Position numbers and translations under genes: made by a program. Positions 398-64,000 of a DNA stretch of 64,000 nucleotides are shown here, one piece after another. A model generated the notes under the pieces. The model was not told where the DNA came from. It did not search any database and saw only the letters and a list, made by a program, of their open reading frames with translations. Source of the DNA: a phage; sequence record PZ445447.1. One strand, 5' to 3'. Numbering within the stretch: the first letter of the stretch is position 1; every line of letters begins with the position of its first letter.

Positions 398-689
398 AAA
401 CATCACCCCCGCAGGGTTCTTAAAAGTATACCGTGAACTGCTATATACTACAGAGGACAGTGTTCTAGAGTATCCAGAATATCTTTTGCTGTATAAGTAT
501 CTGCAGGAGGCTGGTGAAAATCTGCCAGTTAGTGCAGAAGGTGGTCCGAACTGGATATACAGCGCATGGAGAAAGGTTGACATTCTCCCCGACCCAGGTA
601 AAGATATGGTAGTTTGGCAGCTTATTAACAACATCGGGATTCCAATCTTTGATGAAGCTGTTAAAATCTATTTTGAACTTGACGATTAA
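369..689 (+). CDS. hypothetical protein
   Basis: ORF in co-directional array; start overlaps upstream gene end; no motif recognised. Confidence 0.4.
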   Translation: MQEKQQMKTENITPAGFLKVYRELLYTTEDSVLEYPEYLLLYKYLQEAGENLPVSAEGGPNWIYSAWRKVDILPDPGKDMVVWQLINNIGIPIFDEAVKIYFELDD

Positions 690-706
690 TATCAGGAGAC
701 CTTAAG

Positions 707-952
707 ATGACTGAAGTAGTTGCTCGCGCAGGACAGAAAGTACGTTGTGTTGAAGTAGGTTTTGGTGGCAAAGGGTGTCAAAACTTGACTCAAGGTAAGG
801 AATACGCTGTTATTTCTGGTGGTGGCGACGAAAGTATTGTGTTCGAGGGCCACATCCTGGATGCTGAAAACTTTGAAATCTTTGACGACGATGGGGATCC
901 GATCACCTGCCTGCTGGACGGGAATTGGGGAACTTTCGAAGTGATTGGCTAA
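707..952 (+). CDS. hypothetical protein
   Basis: ORF preceded by AGGAG-like RBS (aggagacc) about 8 nt upstream of ATG. Confidence 0.5.
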   Translation: MTEVVARAGQKVRCVEVGFGGKGCQNLTQGKEYAVISGGGDESIVFEGHILDAENFEIFDDDGDPITCLLDGNWGTFEVIG

Positions 953-1035
953 CAAATACCTATTGTAATTTACAGAAGGGGATGCTAAAATAGTGTCTCC
1001 TTCTATGTTGTTCAAATAAAATCGGAGATTCCATA

Positions 1036-1401
1036 ATGGAACAAATGAACGATCAAGCGTCGGTTGCGATGAACGAGCAAGAACAACCTCAAGAATTTTT
1101 CTTAGGGTTAAGTAAAGATCAAGTGTCTCTTTTGCTAGTGCTTTCTTCTTTCATGGGAAGACTTCAGGAGCTCACACAACAACCGGAGGCTGAACAATTA
1201 TTTCAGGCTCTGCGTGAAGAAGAAAAATATCGTCGTTTGGACTATGCCTTAGGTTGGGTAGCTCAACAACGAGATATGCTGATGGCCCTCTCTGGGACCA
1301 CAAGTTTTGCAATGGGCCTGTTGGCTCAAGTTCAGGACAAATTAATTCAAGCAGGGTTTGCACACACGGCAAACACTAACGAAGAACAAGGAGACAAATA
1401 A
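1036..1401 (+). CDS. hypothetical protein
   Basis: ORF with purine-rich RBS (cggagatt); stop overlaps next start (TAATG). Confidence 0.5.
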   Translation: MEQMNDQASVAMNEQEQPQEFFLGLSKDQVSLLLVLSSFMGRLQELTQQPEAEQLFQALREEEKYRRLDYALGWVAQQRDMLMALSGTTSFAMGLLAQVQDKLIQAGFAHTANTNEEQGDK

Positions 1402-2672
1402 TGAGCGTTATTCAACAATTCGCTAACCCGATGAATCCGCGTGAAACTGTTTTACTGGCTCACGGCATGATTAAACGCGTCAGCATCAAGCCTATCAAAG
1501 GTGCTGATCCTACAACAGGTATTAAAACCACTGTGTGGCAAGGTAAGAAAATTGAGTCCAGCCACACCATCTCTTTACTGATTTCTGAACTGGATTCCTC
1601 TGATAACCTGCTTCAAGGTGGTGAAGAAGTCTGGATCAGCATGGGTGATAAACTGCTTAAACCGGGTCATCAAGACTCTGTCTCTGTTAAGATTGATGAC
1701 AAGTGGGAAACCGTAACGCCAGGATGGATCGTAAATATCCCTTTGAAGGCAAACGAGCATAACGGTAAGACCTACTACAAGGGCTCACTGGCTAAGATGG
1801 TTAAGCTGGGTGCAGGAGAGGCTCCAGCAGCGACTCAGCAGCAAAAACAGCAACAAGGTGCACAATCACAAGGCCAGAAGCAGAAACCTCAGCAGAATGC
1901 CAATCAGGACGTTTTACGCATCTATGGCGATGTGACTCAGATTGTTGGCAACGTGGTTACTGTTAATGACCACAAGATTGGCGAAGGTGCTATGGTTGTC
2001 ACTGATGAGCAGCTTAAAGACCTGGTGGTAGGTGGTCGTGTTGCAGCCATTGTTGACAAAGACACCGGAAACATTATCAGTGGTTTCAAAGCCTACCCAC
2101 CTAAGGCAGAGAACGGCACTCAAGGCTCTGGTGGCAAGCGTAAATCCTCTTACGACCCTATTGGTGTGGAGACGGGGCATAGCATCAATGCGTTGCAGAT
2201 CATCCTGGATCGCGGGTTTAAGGTGGACGACCCACTAGGCGTGGCTAAAACACTGCACGTAGTCACCATTGAGCTTAAGAAAGAGTATGCTCAAGCCACC
2301 AACCGAACTGAAGATGAGGTAGGTGCCAGTGTCGGTAATGCGGTGTTGAACGCTTGTCGCCGTATTGACAAGAAAACGAAAGTTGATGATTTTGCAGTGG
2401 CAATTACTGCAGAAGCAAAAGATGTCTTGACTAATCTGGCTGAGCCGTTGTACGATTGGATCAAGAACGGTGCTGGGTCCACTGACCATCAAGAACCTCA
2501 AGCTGCCAAACAGGAAGCTGCTTCACAGCAAAATACTGTAGACGCTCCTCCTGTAAATGACGAGGAAGATGACCCAATGGATCAGAATCCAGCACAGTAT
2601 GACTTCTGTGATGACATACCTTTCGCTCCGGTGGGTTTGCAATATGGCAAAAGTAGAATCCACGCATTGTAA
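1401..2672 (+). CDS. putative ssDNA-binding-like protein with SSB-tail-like DDIPF motif
   Basis: 423 aa; Gln-rich linker, acidic C-terminal region containing D-F-x-DDIPF 16 aa before the stop (bacterial SSB tails end ...DDDIPF); N-terminal OB-fold not verified. Confidence 0.45.
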
Positions 2673-3267
2673 GAGGTGCATCAAGTGTGGAGAGGTGAAA
2701 AACCTCTCCGAGTTCTACAAACATCCAAAGATGTCTGACGGTCATCTTAATAAGTGCAAAGAGTGTTGCAAGAAGGCCAGCAGGGAGGCTGACCAATTTT
2801 CCCACGACTCTTCAGAAAAAGGTGTGATCCGCGTGTTGTACAAGACTCAAAAGTGCAACAGTAAGAAGAGAGGTCACCCACCTCCGACTTACACCAAAAA
2901 AGAGTTTAAGGAGTGGCTATACCTAAACGGTTACAAAGAGTTGTATGATCAATGGGTAGCCAGCGGATACGACAAAAGGAAAAAGCCTTCTTGTGACAGG
3001 ATAGATGATTTCAAAGGGTACTCTTTTGATAATATCCGTTTAACGACTTGGGGAGAAAATAAAGACAAGCAGACAGAGGATATTCTGTTACATAGAAGCA
3101 CCAGCGGTAGACGGTGCAAAAATGTAAGGAGGTTGGACATGAATGGTAACGTTCTTAAAGAATGGGTATCCCACAATTCTTGCCGAAGAGAAACAGGGAT
3201 ATGTGTTGATTACTACATTCATGAAAAAATTCCAGCTCCCGATGGATACCTCTATGAATACTTCTAA
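2644..3267 (+). CDS. zinc-ribbon protein, possibly homing-endonuclease-related DNA-binding protein
   Basis: ATG at 2644 chosen over longer track ORF; N-terminal C-x2-C...F...DG...CKEC block paralogous to N-terminus of the Endo VII-like ORF at 63303; no catalytic motif recognised. Confidence 0.4.
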
Positions 3268-3329: not shown

Positions 3330-3746
3330 ATGACATTAGAAGATATCATTGTTAAACCTGAGAACTATGACCAATACAACCTGTCAACTCAATCTGTAGA
3401 CCTTGGATGCGCCACGGTCAGTGCGTGGCTGGTTAACGGAAAAGAGCTGGATAAATGCTTAGAAGCTCACATGTCTATTAACAAGTTTCTGGATGAAAAT
3501 ACTCACTGGCTTGAGGGTGCAGGCGTATATGCTTCATGGTTGGAGAGTATGGGATTCGACTACCAATCTGAAGAGGGGTGGTGGAGCTATTTAGCTATCT
3601 GCCCAGAGACGCTGCAATGCTTCATGAAATATTCTGAAGATTTGGAGTACCGGGCGGTGGTTGATAGTGCTATTGCCCGTTATAGCCGTAAACCTTTTTC
3701 CCACGACATTAAAACTGTGGAAGAATTTGTTGAAGTTTTCTGTTGA
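3330..3746 (+). CDS. hypothetical protein
   Basis: ORF with AAGGAG RBS (ataaggagatc) upstream. Confidence 0.5.
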   Translation: MTLEDIIVKPENYDQYNLSTQSVDLGCATVSAWLVNGKELDKCLEAHMSINKFLDENTHWLEGAGVYASWLESMGFDYQSEEGWWSYLAICPETLQCFMKYSEDLEYRAVVDSAIARYSRKPFSHDIKTVEEFVEVFC

Positions 3747-3842
3747 CACAAGTTGAAAGGTGTGTAATTATAACTTCATAGAACGGGAGGACGTGATGAA
3801 CGAAGAAAACTGGGATGTATAACTAACAGGAGGCCACTGCCC

Positions 3843-4040
3843 ATGATTTATAGAATCCGTGTAAGAGAAGATGCACCAGGCTGTTACTTTGACTGGCGTG
3901 GGTGGTGGTTTCTCCACCCGATGGATGGACTCACAGATAGAATGCTGGATGCTGCCCTTTATACAGATACCGATATAGAATATAATCTCTATCTGAAGGA
4001 CGGTATAGATAACGGCCTATTTGAAGCAATTCCTGTGTAA
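3843..4040 (+). CDS. hypothetical protein
   Basis: ORF with AGGAGG RBS (caggaggcc) upstream. Confidence 0.45.
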   Translation: MIYRIRVREDAPGCYFDWRGWWFLHPMDGLTDRMLDAALYTDTDIEYNLYLKDGIDNGLFEAIPV

Positions 4041-4108
4041 GAAACTGTGATAGCCATGTTTTATGATCTTCCTGTAGCACCACCACCTGTTGAACCCGGA
4101 GAACTAAG

Positions 4109-4534: not shown

Positions 4535-4982
4535 TACTGTAAAGGGAGATCTAATCTCCATTTTCAAGAAAGGGTCAGGCCACATGATCCACGGTTGTAA
4601 CTGCTTTCACACAATGGGTGCAGGTATAGCGAAAGATATTGCCCGTGAGTTCCCTCAAGCACTGGCAGCCGACAAAGAGACTGCTTATGGTAATCTAGAC
4701 AAGCTGGGTATGTTTTCTTGTTGGGAGCATTTTGCCAAGGCCAGGGTCGTATATGGAATCAACCTGTATACCCAGTTCTACCCAGGGCCCAATGCTGAAT
4801 ACTTCTCAATCATGAAAGGTTTTGAGCGAGTCAACGAGGTATTCAAAGGTATGTCATTGCCGTTCTACATTCCTAAAATCGGATGCGGTATTGGAGGTCT
4901 AAAGTGGGAACATGTAGAAGATGTAATTAATCTTGCAACCACAGATATTGATGTGGTTGTAGTAGAGTACAAAAAGTGTTGA
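4521..4982 (+). CDS. macro domain protein (Poa1-like ADP-ribose processing)
   Basis: GDLIS...HMIHGCNCFHTMGAGIAKDIA matches the macro-domain N-terminal strand plus H/N-C-x-x-x-MGAGIA signature of Poa1-like macro domains; start assumed GTG 4521 overlapping the upstream stop. Confidence 0.6.
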   Translation, partial: TVIIDTVKGDLISIFKKGSGHMIHGCNCFHTMGAGIAKDIAREFPQALAADKETAYGNLDKLGMFSCWEHFAKARVVYGINLYTQFYPGPNAEYFSIMKGFERVNEVFKGMSLPFYIPKIGCGIGGLKWEHVEDVINLATTDIDVVVVEYKKC

Positions 4983-5233
4983 CGACCATCTTCTGAGGTG
5001 ATATAGTTTCCACAACAACTAAGAGAGGAGAGCACTGTGGAGACTAAAATCTTAATTCTTGCTGTGGTAGATACAACCGAAGGAGCTATATTCGAATCTG
5101 CAGGAGGGTATTTCTACCTACCATACGGAAAAAGAACTTCCGAGCCAAGTAAAGATTCAATCCTCAAAGTGTTCCCGTGTGCTTTCTGGCTGGAGATTTT
5201 GGTATAAGATTGCAGATGATTTGGGAGAGAATT

Positions 5234-5428
5234 ATGAGAAACAAGAAAGAACTTTACTCTGGTGAGTGGATCAACGATCAACAGGTGGGAGAGGTAACCT
5301 GCTTCCGATGTTTTACCAGGTACAATCTTAAAACTGCACCAAAAAGTGTTCCAAAGACTGATGGTTATTATATAAAAGAACCTCATTGCCCAAAATGTAA
5401 ATGCCGATTGTACTGGAGCAATCTGTAA
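5234..5428 (+). CDS. small zinc-ribbon protein
   Basis: ATG 5234 after gggagag RBS; CFRCF...CPKCKC cysteine pairs. Confidence 0.45.
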   Translation: MRNKKELYSGEWINDQQVGEVTCFRCFTRYNLKTAPKSVPKTDGYYIKEPHCPKCKCRLYWSNL

Positions 5429-5491
5429 GAGGTTGACATCTGAAAACTGCAGTGTATAATATACGCATAAACTAACAGAGAGCGATGTATT

Positions 5492-5683
5492 ATGGTAATT
5501 TTTAACCGGGATGGTATCATAGTTAGACAGCACCCGTTCCTTGAATACTATCAAATTGAGCAATGGTGCTACGGGGATTGCAGTCACTCCTATGGGCAAA
5601 GTTGGGGATATCGTACAGTTTTTGAATCAACAGACCTTGACAAAGTAAGACAGAAAGTTTTAGAACTTATTAACAACAAGTGA
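5492..5683 (+). CDS. hypothetical protein
   Basis: ORF in array; weak RBS. Confidence 0.4.
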   Translation: MVIFNRDGIIVRQHPFLEYYQIEQWCYGDCSHSYGQSWGYRTVFESTDLDKVRQKVLELINNK

Positions 5684-5692
5684 GTATGATAT

Positions 5693-6025
5693 ATGGTAAC
5701 ATTAGAAAGACGTAAAGCTATCGCTGCCACACTGGCAGACATCTTTTGGGATTGTAATTTAAAATCTACCCGAAATTGTGGCGCATCTGTAGATGTATTA
5801 TTCCCACGGCCTACTATTGTTGCAATGGGCAACCTTCTTGATGTGGTATATGGAGCATGGGACAAGGAAGGTGGATTCTATATCTGGCAACCTGACTACG
5901 GGACTTGGAAAGAGGTTAGTGGTTCTACGGACTTCACTCCTGCAGTGGCTAAAATGGATGGCTGGAAAATCTATGTCGGTAACGACATGGAACTGAAAGG
6001 CGAAATTGTTTACTGGTTACCTTAA
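5693..6025 (+). CDS. hypothetical protein
   Basis: ORF in array; no motif recognised. Confidence 0.5.
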   Translation: MVTLERRKAIAATLADIFWDCNLKSTRNCGASVDVLFPRPTIVAMGNLLDVVYGAWDKEGGFYIWQPDYGTWKEVSGSTDFTPAVAKMDGWKIYVGNDMELKGEIVYWLP

Positions 6026-36128: not shown

Positions 36129-36979
36129 TCTACCAAAGACTGAGGTGTCCAGACCTAAACTTAATGTGATGAATGGAGTCTGCTGTCTCCTCCCTGTGTT
36201 TCCACAGGGCCAGACTATCTCTTACTCTACTTCAATAAGATAATAACCCTTTATTGTGAGATGCTTACCTTCGGCATTTCCTTCGATAGCCCTATGAACG
36301 TTACCTACGTTCAAATTTAAGGCTTTTGCACAGGCATAGAGTGAAGGATATTCACCCACCAAGGTTTTACCTTTGTATGCCTGCACTTTCCTATAGCACT
36401 TACCTGGACAAAGTCCTGTTCGGAAAGCATGTCTCTTATTATCTTCCGGCAAAACCCACTCTAGGTTAGACGGATGATCATTCAATGTATTGCCATCTTT
36501 ATGATTCACTTCCCAGTTTTCAGGGTCTACTGGGACATCTGGCAAACAATACAAGGCAACAACCCTTGAGGTTTGGATTCGAATCTTTTTGCCTTTGTGG
36601 TTGAAAGAGTACATATAACGGCGTTTAACATGCTTGTTACCTTTTCCATAACCTCCCCACAATATTGGGTGCAGCATTCCACGTTTTCCGTATACGTTTC
36701 CAACCTCATCAATCACATAGTTTGATTCTTCACCATTAAGAATGATCTTTTTCATAGAGCCTCTCCATTTCGAAGTTAGCATTTCAACTAACCCCTACAC
36801 TACTTGGTTCAGAAATGTTTGTCAAGCATCTCTGCCTTTCGTTAGTCGTTACAACCGTTCCAACTCCTGTAAGAACTAGTCACGGGATTGGCATAGCTTT
36901 CGCCTTAGCGTTCCCCGTTAGCCGGATTTACCGACCCCTCTTATGAGGTTAGGAGAGTTTTACAACGGCCAGTTTGTTA
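36129..36979 (-). mobile_element. putative group I intron carrying a homing endonuclease gene, inserted in nrdD
   Basis: upstream reading frame stops immediately after ...NG (ggt|taa); exon end caacggU can pair with gccgttG 10 nt downstream (P1 with U.G at the splice site); GNRA-capped hairpin ccctgtg-gaaa-cacaggg near the 3' end; HNH ORF inside. Confidence 0.5.
36222..36782 (-). CDS. HNH homing endonuclease (intron-encoded)
   Basis: motif NHKDGNTLNDHPSNLEWV...EDN typical of phage HNH endonucleases; probable start at internal ATG (MKKIILNG) after ggagagg RBS. Confidence 0.7.
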   Translation of the reverse strand: MLTSKWRGSMKKIILNGEESNYVIDEVGNVYGKRGMLHPILWGGYGKGNKHVKRRYMYSFNHKGKKIRIQTSRVVALYCLPDVPVDPENWEVNHKDGNTLNDHPSNLEWVLPEDNKRHAFRTGLCPGKCYRKVQAYKGKTLVGEYPSLYACAKALNLNVGNVHRAIEGNAEGKHLTIKGYYLIEVE

Positions 36980-60742: not shown

Positions 60743-60817
60743 GCCCTGTTAGCTTAGTGGATAAAGCAGCGGCCTTCTAAGCCGTTGACACTGGTTCGAG
60801 TCCAGTACGGGGTGCCA
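60743..60817 (+). tRNA. tRNA-Arg (anticodon TCT)
   Basis: manual cloverleaf: acceptor gccctgt/acggggt, D-stem gctt/aagc, anticodon loop cttctaa, T-arm actgg-ttcgagt-ccagt, encoded CCA. Confidence 0.8.
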
Positions 60818-60821
60818 AATT

Positions 60822-60908
60822 GGGGAGTTATCCCGTAGAGGTAGCGGTGTAGACTGTAAATCTATTGTCATTGCGACTCGGGTGGTTCGACTCCACCACT
60901 CCCCACCA
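60822..60908 (+). tRNA. tRNA-Tyr (anticodon GTA), type II
   Basis: acceptor ggggagt/actcccc, anticodon loop ctgtaaa, long variable arm, T-arm ggtgg-ttcgact-ccacc, encoded CCA. Confidence 0.75.
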
Positions 60909-61022
60909 AATTTATATTTTTAGATGCATAAATAATACAGATAATGGCATTGATATTTATCGTCGTTTATACTAGTCACTAACTGCTCGAAAATCAGTGT
61001 CATTATCAGTATAATTTATAAA

Positions 61023-61113
61023 GGAGGGTAGGGAGCAATGGTGCTCAAGCGGTCTTGAAAACCGTCCCGTTGAGGATGACTCGATGATGGTTCGATTCCA
61101 TTACTCTCCGCCA
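61023..61113 (+). tRNA. tRNA-Ser (anticodon TGA), type II
   Basis: acceptor ggagggt/actctcc, anticodon arm gcggt-cttgaaa-accgt, long variable arm, T-loop ttcgatt, encoded CCA. Confidence 0.75.
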
Positions 61114-61211
61114 CATTGTTGACCTTGTAATTAAGCGAAAGCCGGAAGCAGAACCGGATTATCAAATGTTACAGTCGTCATCGCCGACTAGCAACATGGT
61201 CAACATACTGA

Positions 61212-61310
61212 GCTAGGTAAGCCCTTTGGCAAGGGCGAGGATTTTTAATCCTGAAAATAGACGAGGTAGTCGTTGAATACATAGGTGGTTCGATTCCATC
61301 ACCTAGCACC
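61212..61310 (+). tRNA. atypical tRNA-like gene (anticodon ambiguous, TTT if 7-nt loop)
   Basis: acceptor gctaggt/acctagc, D-arm gccc-tttggcaa-gggc and T-arm ggtgg-ttcgatt-ccatc are canonical, but anticodon stem is imperfect and 29 nt lie between anticodon arm and T-arm; 99 nt total. Confidence 0.4.
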
Positions 61311-61315
61311 TTTTT

Positions 61316-61391
61316 GCTGATGTAGCACAATCGGTAGTGCAATTGATTTGTAATCAATAGGTTGTAGGTTCAAGTCCTGCCATCAGCACCA
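61316..61391 (+). tRNA. tRNA-Thr (anticodon TGT)
   Basis: acceptor gctgatg/catcagc, D-stem gcac/gtgc, anticodon arm attga-tttgtaa-tcaat, T-loop ttcaagt, encoded CCA. Confidence 0.8.
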
Positions 61392-61392
61392 A

Positions 61393-61467
61393 GGCCCTGT
61401 AGCTGGAAGGTTCAAGCAAGCGACTCATAATCGCCAGACGGTGGTTCAATTCCACCCAGGGCCACCA
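61393..61467 (+). tRNA. tRNA with CAT anticodon (Met or lysidine-type Ile)
   Basis: acceptor ggccctg/cagggcc, anticodon loop ctcataa, T-arm ggtgg-ttcaatt-ccacc, encoded CCA; 3-bp D-stem and A.C at top of anticodon stem. Confidence 0.65.
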
Positions 61468-61478
61468 AATAGTAAATA

Positions 61479-61555
61479 CTCCGCGTAGCTCAGCTTGGTA
61501 GAGCGCCTGATTTGGGATCAGGAGGTCGAGTGTTCGAATCACTCCGTGGAGACCA
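61479..61555 (+). tRNA. tRNA-Pro (anticodon TGG)
   Basis: acceptor ctccgcg/cgtggag, D-arm gctc-agcttggta-gagc, anticodon arm cctga-tttggga-tcagg, T-loop ttcgaat, encoded CCA. Confidence 0.8.
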
Positions 61556-61976: not shown

Positions 61977-62375
61977 ATGATTTCAGTTTTAACATGGCTG
62001 AGCAGGTATAAAGGGATCATAAAAGGTTTAGTTTTTGCAGCTGCGATAGGTACAGCTTATCTTGGGGCCGTGTATTGGTTTAACTCTAAGCTTAATGATG
62101 CCTACCAAGAAGGTGTGTCAGCAACAGAGTTAAAGTGGGAACGGATCCTTGATCAGCAACAAAAGCAGGCCGACAAAATTAAAATGGGCCACGCAGAGGA
62201 GGTTAAAAACCTTGAAAAATCCCTTTCTGATCTGCAGGATAAATTAAATATAGCTGAGAAGGCAGGTAAAGAAAAGCAGATTATCTACCTCCAGTCACCT
62301 GAAGGCAAGAAGTCAACACTTCCTGATCAGCTTATAGATATTTATAATGAGAGTATCAATCAGGAGGATCAATGA
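61977..62375 (+). CDS. putative i-spanin (Rz-like)
   Basis: N-terminal TM helix GIIKGLVFAAAIGTAYLGAVYWF followed by charged coiled-coil periplasmic domain; overlaps next gene by ATGA. Confidence 0.55.
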   Translation: MISVLTWLSRYKGIIKGLVFAAAIGTAYLGAVYWFNSKLNDAYQEGVSATELKWERILDQQQKQADKIKMGHAEEVKNLEKSLSDLQDKLNIAEKAGKEKQIIYLQSPEGKKSTLPDQLIDIYNESINQEDQ

Positions 62376-62659
62376 GAGTTGCTACACTGTTTATTGTGTG
62401 CTTGTTATTATGTGGGTGTGCAACCAGCGTTGAGAGAGAATACAAGATTGACCCTCCTGATGTAGGAAGGTTGATTGTTAAACCCCCGGAAGGTGCCATG
62501 AAACCACCTGCTAAAGCTATGCCTTTGAAGAAAGGTGCGCCAGATGCAGTGAATTCTGGCATTATGAGGGATAATAATCTGTCTTGTAGCAATGATAGAG
62601 CTAAATTGATCATTTTGCAAGACTATATTAGAACACTTTTTCCAAAGGAGAGAGGTTAA
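62372..62659 (+). CDS. putative o-spanin (Rz1-like lipoprotein)
   Basis: signal peptide with Cys cluster (FIVCLLLCGCATS) and proline-rich mature region (DPPDVGRLIVKPPEGAMKPPAKAMP); lipobox non-canonical. Confidence 0.5.
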   Translation: MRVATLFIVCLLLCGCATSVEREYKIDPPDVGRLIVKPPEGAMKPPAKAMPLKKGAPDAVNSGIMRDNNLSCSNDRAKLIILQDYIRTLFPKERG

Positions 62660-63087
62660 TGTCTAAGATTTACGGACCGTGTTCTGAAAAGCAGAAGATG
62701 ATCCTAGAAAACGATGCAGATATTTTGGTAATCGGCGGTGCCGCAGGGTCTGGCAAGTCGTTCCTCTTGCAATTGATGCCACTTAAAATTATTGATGACC
62801 CCCACAGCTCTGTGGTTATGTTCCGAAGAACAACCCCACAGTTGGAAGGTGAGGGTGGATTATGGCCTAAAGCAGTAGCTATTTATAGTGATCTGCCTGA
62901 AAACATTAAGCCAAAGTTTAGAGAGAAGGATCATAAGTTCATTTTTCCACGGTTTGATCCGAACACTGGCAAGTGGGATAGAAGCAAAAAGGGAGCTGTT
63001 GTAAAATACTGCCACATGGAGTATGTACAAGATAAGCTTAACCATCAGGGGCTTGAGTACACCATGGTTTGCTTCGATGAGGGTTAA
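62659..63087 (+). CDS. terminase large subunit-like P-loop ATPase, N-terminal fragment (gene interrupted)
   Basis: Walker A ILVIGGAAGSGKSF and Walker B-like MVCFDEG; the frame stops immediately after the Walker B at 142 aa. Confidence 0.5.
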   Translation: MSKIYGPCSEKQKMILENDADILVIGGAAGSGKSFLLQLMPLKIIDDPHSSVVMFRRTTPQLEGEGGLWPKAVAIYSDLPENIKPKFREKDHKFIFPRFDPNTGKWDRSKKGAVVKYCHMEYVQDKLNHQGLEYTMVCFDEG

Positions 63088-64000
63088 TTTGTAGCTCTCG
63101 TAAAACCTCCCTAATTGCGGGGAAATCTTTATTATTGACACCACCAACCTGTCATGGTAACATGACAGAGGCTTCGAAGAGAGATCGAAGGTATGGTAAC
63201 AGTGTGTTAATTTAGATAATCCGCAGCGAAGCATCCGAGAGGATGAACGTTCAACGACTAGTCGAAAGACGTAGAATCAAGCGATTCGAAACGGGAGGGT
63301 GAATGTGTAATACTAAGAAATGTATGGATTGCCAAAGAGTTCTACCTATTGATGATTTCTTTTTATCATCTAAGAGCAAGGATGGATACTCAGGTACATG
63401 CAAGGAATGCTATATGTACTACAGGAAGGGTGGATCTCGTAAAAACAAAAATATGGTTAAGAGAGATGATGCAGCATTGTTTATTCAAGACTTGCTGAAG
63501 AAAGGTGAACTTTTTGAATGCAAATCTTGTCATGAAAGTATGCTCGCTGATAGTTTTTACACAAAACGTGACTATGGTAAAGTATATCTGGTTACGAACA
63601 GGTGTAAGATGTGTGAAAAGTTTTATCAGATTGAGAAGAAATTTCACATAACAAAAGATGAATACTATCGTCTACTCTCAGATCAAGATCATAAGTGTGC
63701 CATTTGTAGAATATCCCTTGATGAGTATAGGACGCAAGGGTATAGAGATTTCTTTTGTGTTGATCATGACCATAAAACTGGTGCTGTAAGAGGGTTGCTT
63801 TGTGATAAATGCAACAGAGCTTTAGGTTTCTTCCAAGAGGATGAGGAAACTATTCTTAGAGCGGCAGAGTATTTACACATTCATAAGATATAGTCTGGTC
63901 TGCATGGAGACATGCAGCTGCCTGAAAATGGCGGGGCAAGACTAGCGACCTTGCCCGAACATAAACGACACAATTCGAATGGGAGCAGATAGACTACCTG
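63088..64000 (+). mobile_element. putative intron or homing-endonuclease insertion (runs past window end)
   Basis: structured sequence with GNRA-capped hairpins (ctgtcatg-gtaa-catgacag; ctgcatg-gaga-catgcag) flanking an Endo VII-like endonuclease ORF right after the truncated terminase-like frame; 3' boundary not in window. Confidence 0.4.
63303..63893 (+). CDS. Endo VII-like HNH homing endonuclease with N-terminal zinc-ribbon domains
   Basis: C-terminal HKCAICRISLDEY...VDHDHKTGAVRGLLCDKCNRALGFF is a textbook endonuclease VII core; N-terminal CMDCQ...DG...CKEC zinc-ribbon repeats; gggagggtga RBS. Confidence 0.7.
   Translation: MCNTKKCMDCQRVLPIDDFFLSSKSKDGYSGTCKECYMYYRKGGSRKNKNMVKRDDAALFIQDLLKKGELFECKSCHESMLADSFYTKRDYGKVYLVTNRCKMCEKFYQIEKKFHITKDEYYRLLSDQDHKCAICRISLDEYRTQGYRDFFCVDHDHKTGAVRGLLCDKCNRALGFFQEDEETILRAAEYLHIHKI

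Follow-up and report, generated by a model that had tools for sequence, protein, structure and literature searches.

What interrupts the gene at the right-hand end of the phage sequence PZ445447.1, of which a stretch of 64,000 nucleotides (nt) was analysed (hereafter, the window)? An open reading frame (ORF) at 62659–63087 encodes 142 amino acids (aa), with a Walker A motif, GGAAGSGKSF, within LVIGGAAGSGKSFLL and a C-terminus of ...EYTMVCFDEG that is followed directly by a TAA stop codon. Shortly downstream lies a second ORF of 196 aa with an endonuclease VII core and zinc ribbons. A first description of this region, made without database searches (the sequence-only reading), had noted both ORFs and proposed that a larger P-loop gene, probably a packaging ATPase, is cut at a conserved site by an intron or homing endonuclease insertion. 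The analysis presented here bears this out: with a probability of roughly 95%, the window ends inside terL, the terminase large subunit gene of a Vequintavirus, and this gene is split directly after the Walker B codons ...FDEG by a group I intron. The element in terL is already known, having been published in 2013 and annotated in GenBank; in phage rV5, terL lies in three segments with a homing endonuclease (Kropinski et al. 2013, 'Introns in terminase', PMC3606486). Small additions made here are a base-level map, a three-state polymorphism with a T/C correlation at position -1, and translation signals overlapping the ribozyme helices P3, P8 and P7.

Boundaries of the insertion in terL

Window positions 61977–64000 match positions 1–2024 of MZ501093.1 at 100% identity. 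This record is the genome of Escherichia phage MaxBurger (Vequintavirus, rV5-like; BASEL collection), in which terL is annotated as a two-piece joined coding sequence (CDS; 683..3113) enclosing a 'putative homing endonuclease'; the nrdD region of the window corresponds to MZ501093.1 from 109370 onward. The protein encoded by the first ORF matches phrog_9526 (4.6e-76, profile positions 4–133 of 280), phrog_979 (2.3e-47) and Pfam Terminase_6N (25.6 bits, profile positions 2–104 of 215, the first half of the domain). Because coverage of the terminase profiles stops within their N-terminal half, the ORF represents an N-terminal fragment of a truncated terL, and for the same reason a complete small P-loop protein was ruled out. 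Based on these profiles and on alignment with the intron-less phage FV3, exon 1 of terL was assigned to 62659–63084 (plus strand, as are all features described below unless stated otherwise); its 142 codons include those for Walker A (GGAAGSGKS) and Walker B (MVCFDE) and end in GGT.

The boundaries of the insertion were defined by aligning the terL span of MaxBurger with intron-less FV3 (1548-nt CDS), magaca and JohannBauhin. In the alignment with these three relatives, an insert of 883 nt sits in the window between ...TTCGATGAGGGT and ACACAATTCGAATGG..., and the FV3 junction GAGGGC/ACGCAG is the exact counterpart of GAGGGT, 883 nt, ACACAA. The two loci differ in length by 883 nt with the frame kept, and excision of these nucleotides gives a 1548-nt CDS in frame, as in FV3. 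Shifting the boundary by one base gives wrong codons; the boundary chosen places U at -1 and G as the last intron base and restores the E-G-T-Q of FV3. The intron so delimited spans 63085–63967, starts with UAAUUU and ends with AAACG, its terminal base being G63967; the assignment draws on the Rfam family RF00028, on intron-less alleles and on covariation.

Exon 2 resumes within the window. Its first 33 nt (63968–64000; ACA CAA TTC GAA TGG ..., translating as TQFEWEQIDYL) were identified from the alignment with FV3, magaca and JohannBauhin and from the MaxBurger record, and the remaining 1089 nt lie past the window end. The sequence-only reading, which had placed the downstream exon wholly beyond the window and let hairpin-rich sequence run to its edge, was right about those 1089 nt and about hairpins further upstream, and wrong about the last 33 nt. 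Extension downstream yields an in-frame terminase continuation: spliced TerL is a protein of 515 aa with a single Terminase_6N match across the junction (residues 25–294, 72.2 bits, compared with 25.6 for exon 1 alone) and a match to Terminase_6C (27.0 bits, cut-off 22.6), which identifies it as a T4-type large subunit (PF03237 and PF17289). A sequence search of the PDB with spliced TerL returned nothing at E ≤ 0.01.

Sequence at the junction varies with the presence of the intron. Among 16 alleles sampled, the last codon of exon 1 is GGT in all ten that carry the intron and GGC in all six that do not, and U at -1 and the terminal G are retained in 10/10 of the intron copies. All listed matches that stop at the end of exon 1 (query 775–784, the pattern expected of intron-less alleles) finish before the T at -1. 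This strict T/C split fits the need of helix P1 for a U·G pair. Exon 2 starts mostly with ACA CAA where the intron is present and with ACG CAG or ACG CAA where it is absent, the correlation here being imperfect.

Two other kinds of insertion, an intein and a group II intron, can be dismissed. An intein-like insert does occur in terL of phage Av-05 and of the diverged Vequintavirinae contigs L011 and L012, but it is placed at the P-loop; at the site studied here, a stop codon closes exon 1, and no single in-frame ORF runs through the insert. The sequence-only reading had left the class as group I or group II. No group II family match and no reverse transcriptase were found, and group I, represented by RF00028, was the sole intron family detected.

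Fold of the intron RNA

A default Rfam scan of the whole window reported transfer RNAs (tRNAs) only, the intron being seen only in E-value mode, where RF00028 matches the window copy over the whole model (63075–63917; 48.7 bits, E = 4e-11). The default scan missed the intron because this copy lies under the gathering score of 50, most likely as a consequence of the 564 nt that P8 carries beyond the ORF-less form. The ORF-less allele (319 nt), which is about 98% identical to the window copy outside P8, reaches 84.9 bits for the rV5 copy and 84.1 for that of A135, the cut-off being 50, and the RNA of the ORF-less magaca intron folds with z = -5.0 relative to shuffles.

A helix map was compiled from the Rfam alignment and minimum free energy folds. 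The sequence-only reading had found no convincing P1; this helix is present at 63079–63099, where exon GAGGGU and intron UA (63079–63086) pair with the internal guide sequence UAGCUCUC (63092–63099), placing the 5' splice site at the wobble pair U63084·G63094. A possible P10 could be formed by UGU (63090–63092) with ACA of exon 2. The core helices P3 to P8 were all located, including the P3/P7 pseudoknot with the guanosine-binding P7. The 5' part of the catalytic core, P3 to P7.2, occupies 63106–63298 and comprises P3 (63106–11 with 63293–98), P4 (63116–21 with 63220–25), P5 with a P5a–c extension (63124–63217, two GUAA loops), P6 (63232–45, GAGA loop), the 5' strand of P7 (63256–60 with 63891–95, GACUA/UAGUC), P7.1 (63261–70, GUC-GAAA-GAC with a GAAA loop) and P7.2 (63274–87, GAAUC-AAGC-GAUUC). 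The GUAA, GAGA and GAAA loops found at 63088–63302 account for the GNRA-capped hairpins that the sequence-only reading had reported in these 215 nt. The P8 stem (63301–14 with 63868–82, enclosing 63301–63882) closes the loop that holds the endonuclease ORF. It is followed by J8/7 and the 3' strand of P7 (AUAAGAUAUAGUC, 63883–95), by P9 (63900–17, GAGA loop), P9.1 (63920–32) and P9.2 (63934–56), and by a 3' tail leading to the terminal G63967. The hairpin-rich sequence that the sequence-only reading had described after the second ORF thus consists of the 3' strand of P7 with P9, P9.1 and P9.2.

Two extra hairpins, P7.1 and P7.2, separate P7 from the 3' strand of P3 and show compensatory changes among relatives. 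They are a mark of subgroup IA of the T4 type, and the intron is accordingly described as subgroup IA-like. The same set of helices is obtained when the MaxBurger, Av-05 and phiKZ-type introns are folded separately. Covariation was evaluated in ten sequences (eight Vequintavirus copies, Av-05 and a phiKZ-type relative), using a structure derived from one aligned row. P7 GACUA/UAGUC is invariant in 10/10; overall, 94.8% of cells are paired, compared with 34–42% after sliding of the partners; compensatory changes occur at 25 pairs, compared with 4–10 in the slid controls and 6.8 ± 1.9 in shuffles, none of 500 shuffles reaching 25.

Several points weigh against the assignment as a functional group I intron. 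The window copy falls 1.3 bits below the Rfam gathering score (48.7 versus 50), and P10 amounts to only about 3 base pairs, read by eye. The dependence of the covariation structure on a single aligned row is a further caveat, as is the partial misalignment of two rows. Most copies are 94–99% identical, so that much of the covariation stems from only two diverged relatives. These were the rows misaligned by MAFFT, Av-05 from P7.1 to P8 and the phiKZ-type intron in its 5' half, which makes the pair counts conservative for P3, P4 and P8. Lastly, no splicing or cleavage experiment on a terL intron of the MaxBurger type was found in the searchable literature.

We infer that the intron is spliced in vivo. 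The terL pre-mRNA would fold into the P1–P9.2 core, guanosine would attack after U63084, held in its U·G pair by the internal guide sequence, and the terminal G63967 would then direct exon ligation, the product being an mRNA for a 515-aa TerL with ATPase and RNase H-like nuclease. An alternative that dispenses with splicing is a genuinely divided terL, with a free-standing endonuclease gene between two halves that are translated apart and then assemble, as reported for NrdA, split by mobE, in Aeromonas phage Aeh1. The stop codon that ends exon 1 would suit such an arrangement, as would an in-frame ATG of exon 2, 33 nt past the junction, at which some annotators start a second 'terminase' CDS (magaca, ECP26, slur12); moreover, one endonuclease-associated interruption in phage CB7 is unspliced (PMC7344957). 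Yet a full group I core surrounds the ORF, the ORF-less form still breaks terL, and the break separates Walker B from the remainder of the ATPase fold, within what is one Terminase_6N domain. The conservation of U at -1 and of the terminal G in all ten sampled copies likewise counts against a split gene, and we regard this alternative as very improbable.

An endonuclease gene within the P8 loop

The ORF in the P8 loop (63303–63893, 196 aa) encodes a putative homing endonuclease of the Endonuclease VII/His-Me finger type, within the HNH superfamily, with N-terminal CxxC zinc ribbons. The protein matches Pfam Endonuclease_7 (PF02945; 2e-21, 76.1 bits, cut-off 23.6), phrog_2633 (3e-33) and several PHROG 'endonuclease VII' families. 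Its core, CAIC...VDHDHKTGAVRGLLCDKCN, includes the catalytic DHDH...CN and aligns with T4 endonuclease VII and Hpy99I, which are also the best PDB sequence matches (6e-4 and 1e-5, respectively) and have a His-Me finger and zinc ligands in common with it; another four to five CxxC pairs lie upstream of the core. The ORF is intact in four of five copies, and codon differences are mostly synonymous (synonymous to non-synonymous, 14:4 and 7:1). The metagenomic contig IMGVR_UViG_3300010279_000001 (locus L010) carries an 884-nt copy of the intron in which a 1-nt insertion reduces the endonuclease to 89 aa, the ribozyme parts remaining intact. Taken together, these features are consistent with an active homing endonuclease that shows the usual signs of occasional decay.

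The distribution of the element was assessed in 122 phage records matching the region. The ORF-bearing intron is found in 30 of these and the ORF-less intron in approximately 23 more (at least 80% of the intron in 53), and the remaining records match only to the end of exon 1. The site is thus polymorphic with three states: empty, ORF-less and endonuclease-bearing. Near-identical copies of the endonuclease among phage genomes are confined to the 30 ORF-bearing terL introns, all other matches, among them the nearest relatives beyond Vequintavirus, being less than 60% identical. A scan of IMG/VR with the exon 1 protein yielded only six loci, so that this picture of the population rests on GenBank phage records. 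In intron-less V18 (KY683736.1, locus L019, 2770–2795), the exact insertion site is altered by a duplication of 9 nt, GGTTTGCTT, and by the loss of 1 nt (GGG to GG), which together frameshift terL into two annotated CDSs; a sequencing error could explain these changes, as could a scar left by repair. About 18 GenBank records of the MG0656xx series labelled 'UNVERIFIED: Campylobacter phage' (for example that of A135, locus L016) are 96–100% identical to E. coli Vequintavirus across terL and nrdD, and the Campylobacter jejuni host label is probably wrong.

In a mixed infection, the endonuclease encoded in P8 would be expected to cut intron-less terL near the insertion site, and repair would copy the intron in. 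A role in homing is suggested indirectly by the location of the gene in an intron loop, the presence/absence polymorphism and the predominance of synonymous changes. A different view would be that the intron is a decayed relic that splices inefficiently and that the ORF has been retained for a different function, such as that of a junction resolvase which, like T4 gp49, clears branched DNA before packaging. Membership of the same Pfam family as T4 endonuclease VII and a location inside a packaging gene are in keeping with a resolvase. The ORF is, however, dispensable: of 122 related records only 30 carry it, the others having the ORF-less intron (about 23) or no intron at all. The one metagenomic copy noted above is, moreover, frameshifted. 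As for a relic, the RNA helices are maintained by compensatory changes, terL is essential and MaxBurger is a plaque-forming isolate. This view is even less probable than that of a split gene, and a homing endonuclease within a splicing intron remains the preferred explanation.

The translation signals of the endonuclease gene are embedded in the ribozyme. Its sole Shine-Dalgarno-like sequence, GGGAGG (63293–98), is the 3' strand of P3, its ATG (63303) lies within the 5' strand of P8, and its TAG stop codon (63891–93) lies within the 3' strand of P7. The folded ribozyme would hide the start site, and ribosomes translating the ORF would open P8 and P7, so that a given RNA molecule should be either translated or spliced, but not both. 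Such mutual exclusion is reportedly known for I-TevI.

Comparison of ORF-bearing and ORF-less introns reveals that the whole P8 hairpin has been replaced and that the two forms are not related by a simple deletion. The ORF-less P8 is an unrelated short hairpin, UAAGCG-GUUGUUGU-CGCUUA. In the ORF-bearing form, P8 (UGUGUAAUA...ACACA) is similar to the short P8 found in the diverged intron of Av-05, and this similarity suggests that the endonuclease ORF was inserted into an Av-05-like P8 loop. That the endonuclease cassette moves independently of the ribozyme, and that its expression excludes splicing of the same RNA molecule, is put forward tentatively, with the odds somewhat against it. If true, and taken with the at least four other self-splicing insertions that the gene has in various members of the subfamily, terL of Vequintavirinae would offer a natural, genetically tractable system for the whole homing cycle. 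All three states coexist in closely related, available isolates of the BASEL collection, which would make direct homing and co-conversion experiments possible.

A sigma-70-like sequence, TTGACA-17-(TG)TAACAT, is present at 63135–63163, within the P5 extension. It lies 140 nt upstream of the ATG of the endonuclease gene and matches at 10 of 12 positions. The TTGACA element is kept in 5/5 ORF-bearing copies and in 2/5 ORF-less copies, the other three having TTAATA. In a scan for promoters and terminators, promoter-like counts were no higher than in shuffles (8 versus 4.5 ± 2.3), and this lone good site is a lead only; it could give the endonuclease its own transcript.

Known introns and further elements of the region

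The closest known counterpart is that of rV5 (NC_011041 gp065, a three-piece joined CDS). The gene is the same, the intron lies at the same site after GAGGGT and the ribozyme is about 98% identical outside P8. The rV5 copy, by contrast, is the 319-nt ORF-less form, and 317 nt beyond it lies another intron, which carries a different endonuclease gene of the HNH type (gp066). In MaxBurger this second intron is missing, and the first site is occupied by the form with an Endonuclease VII-type gene in P8. The LL12 genome announcement mentions introns in two genes, terL and that of the DNA polymerase, and intron boundaries were annotated according to the BASEL paper. An intron of group I also interrupts terL of Lactobacillus phage LL-H (cited in PMC3606486). 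For Pectobacterium phage CB7 (Certrevirus, Vequintavirinae; PMC7344957), reverse transcription PCR showed that a terL intron is spliced. The two phages are likened to the present case by host gene and intron class, terL being broken by a group I intron that may or may not come with an HNH-type endonuclease.

Similarity extends to introns in other genes. By blastn, the core shares 72% identity with the T4 nrdB intron and, across 190 nt, 73% with the phiKZ-type intron that lies between gp71 and gp73. Like the T4 introns (td, nrdB, nrdD/sunY) and the phiKZ type, the terL intron has the P7.1/P7.2 pair typical of subgroup IA, resides in a phage and can house an endonuclease ORF in a peripheral loop; it differs in host gene and guide sequences and in having its ORF in P8, overlapping strands of P3, P8 and P7. 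The T4 intron endonucleases are of the GIY-YIG (I-TevI, I-TevII) or HNH (I-TevIII) type and not of the Endonuclease VII type. Pseudomonas phage fnug (locus L021, approximately 1405–1741) carries an ORF-less group I intron between homologues of phiKZ gp071 and gp073 that is unannotated there; its 3' half, from P7 to P9.2, shares about 73% identity with the intron in terL.

For the endonuclease, F-CphI of cyanophage S-PM2 is a relative within the PF02945 family (tblastn, 31% identity over 61% of the query, E = 4e-9), the locus being annotated 'F-CphI: endonuclease VII'. F-CphI is free-standing and adjoins an intron, in contrast to the terL endonuclease gene, which lies inside its intron.

The terL case leaves knowledge of group I introns and of terminases unchanged. 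Biologically it is a textbook example, in which a selfish intron targets an essential packaging ATPase at its most conserved point, immediately behind Walker B. In practice it matters for annotation: about half of the deposited intron-bearing rV5-like genomes present terL as two CDSs, called 'terminase' or 'hypothetical', on either side of a 'recombination endonuclease VII', and the ORF-bearing copy escapes a default Rfam scan.

Further insertions were encountered in terL of related phages. The second intron site, 317 nt into exon 2 and after codon 248, is absent from the phage of the window. It is occupied by introns of approximately 975–980 nt with an HNH ORF in rV5 (locus L005, 2691–3669 of the reverse complement), in L008 (3904–4883) and in L012 (4422–5394), and by a 268-nt intron without ORF in A135 (3423–3690; RF00028, 87.5 bits). 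Different group I introns are found in L012, 33 nt upstream of the site in the window and after CAAGGGT (3822–4070; RF00028, 49 bits), and in L011 after codon 479 (approximately 4866–5698; RF00028, 70.3 bits). The in-frame insert of about 240 aa at the P-loop is located at 1971–2690 in Av-05 (locus L006) and at approximately 2799–3518 in L011 and L012, the equivalent position in the window being between 62748 and 62749. The extein reads GGAAG, the insert starts with CLS and ends with TGN, and the extein resumes with SGKS; the Walker A motif of the window is uninterrupted. This insert has the hallmarks of an intein. In Av-05 (NC_025830.1; loci L006 and L020, across the record ends), the exon segment of codons 131–248 is inverted between two terL introns, with breakpoints in the shared GATATAGTCT..CTGCATG..CATGCAG (3' strand of P7 and P9); either misassembly at a repeat or recombination between the introns could account for this.

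Elsewhere in the window, nrdD (class III ribonucleotide reductase) harbours a second group I intron of 797 nt on the minus strand (36183–36979), with its terminal G at 36183. Exon 1 of nrdD ends with ...GTCAACGGT, directly before TAACAA, and P1 is formed by CAACGGU/GCCGUUG. The sequence-only reading had remarked that the terL break, ggt/taa, matches the interruption of nrdD, and the minus strand does read the same. The intron contains an HNH-type ORF of 186 aa (36222–36782) that is annotated as a homing endonuclease in MaxBurger. Its Rfam match reaches only 27.7 bits (E = 0.005, 36192–36479). It is absent from rV5, in which the codon is GGG, not GGT, and only 28 of 121 records cover the full nrdD intron region.

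Just upstream of the spanin and terL genes is a cluster of seven tRNA genes (60743–61555; Arg-TCT, Tyr, Ser, Thr, Met, Pro). One odd tRNA-like gene in this cluster (61212–61310, 99 nt) is assigned the 4-base anticodon 'atcc' by ARAGORN and scores 35.5 bits in Rfam.

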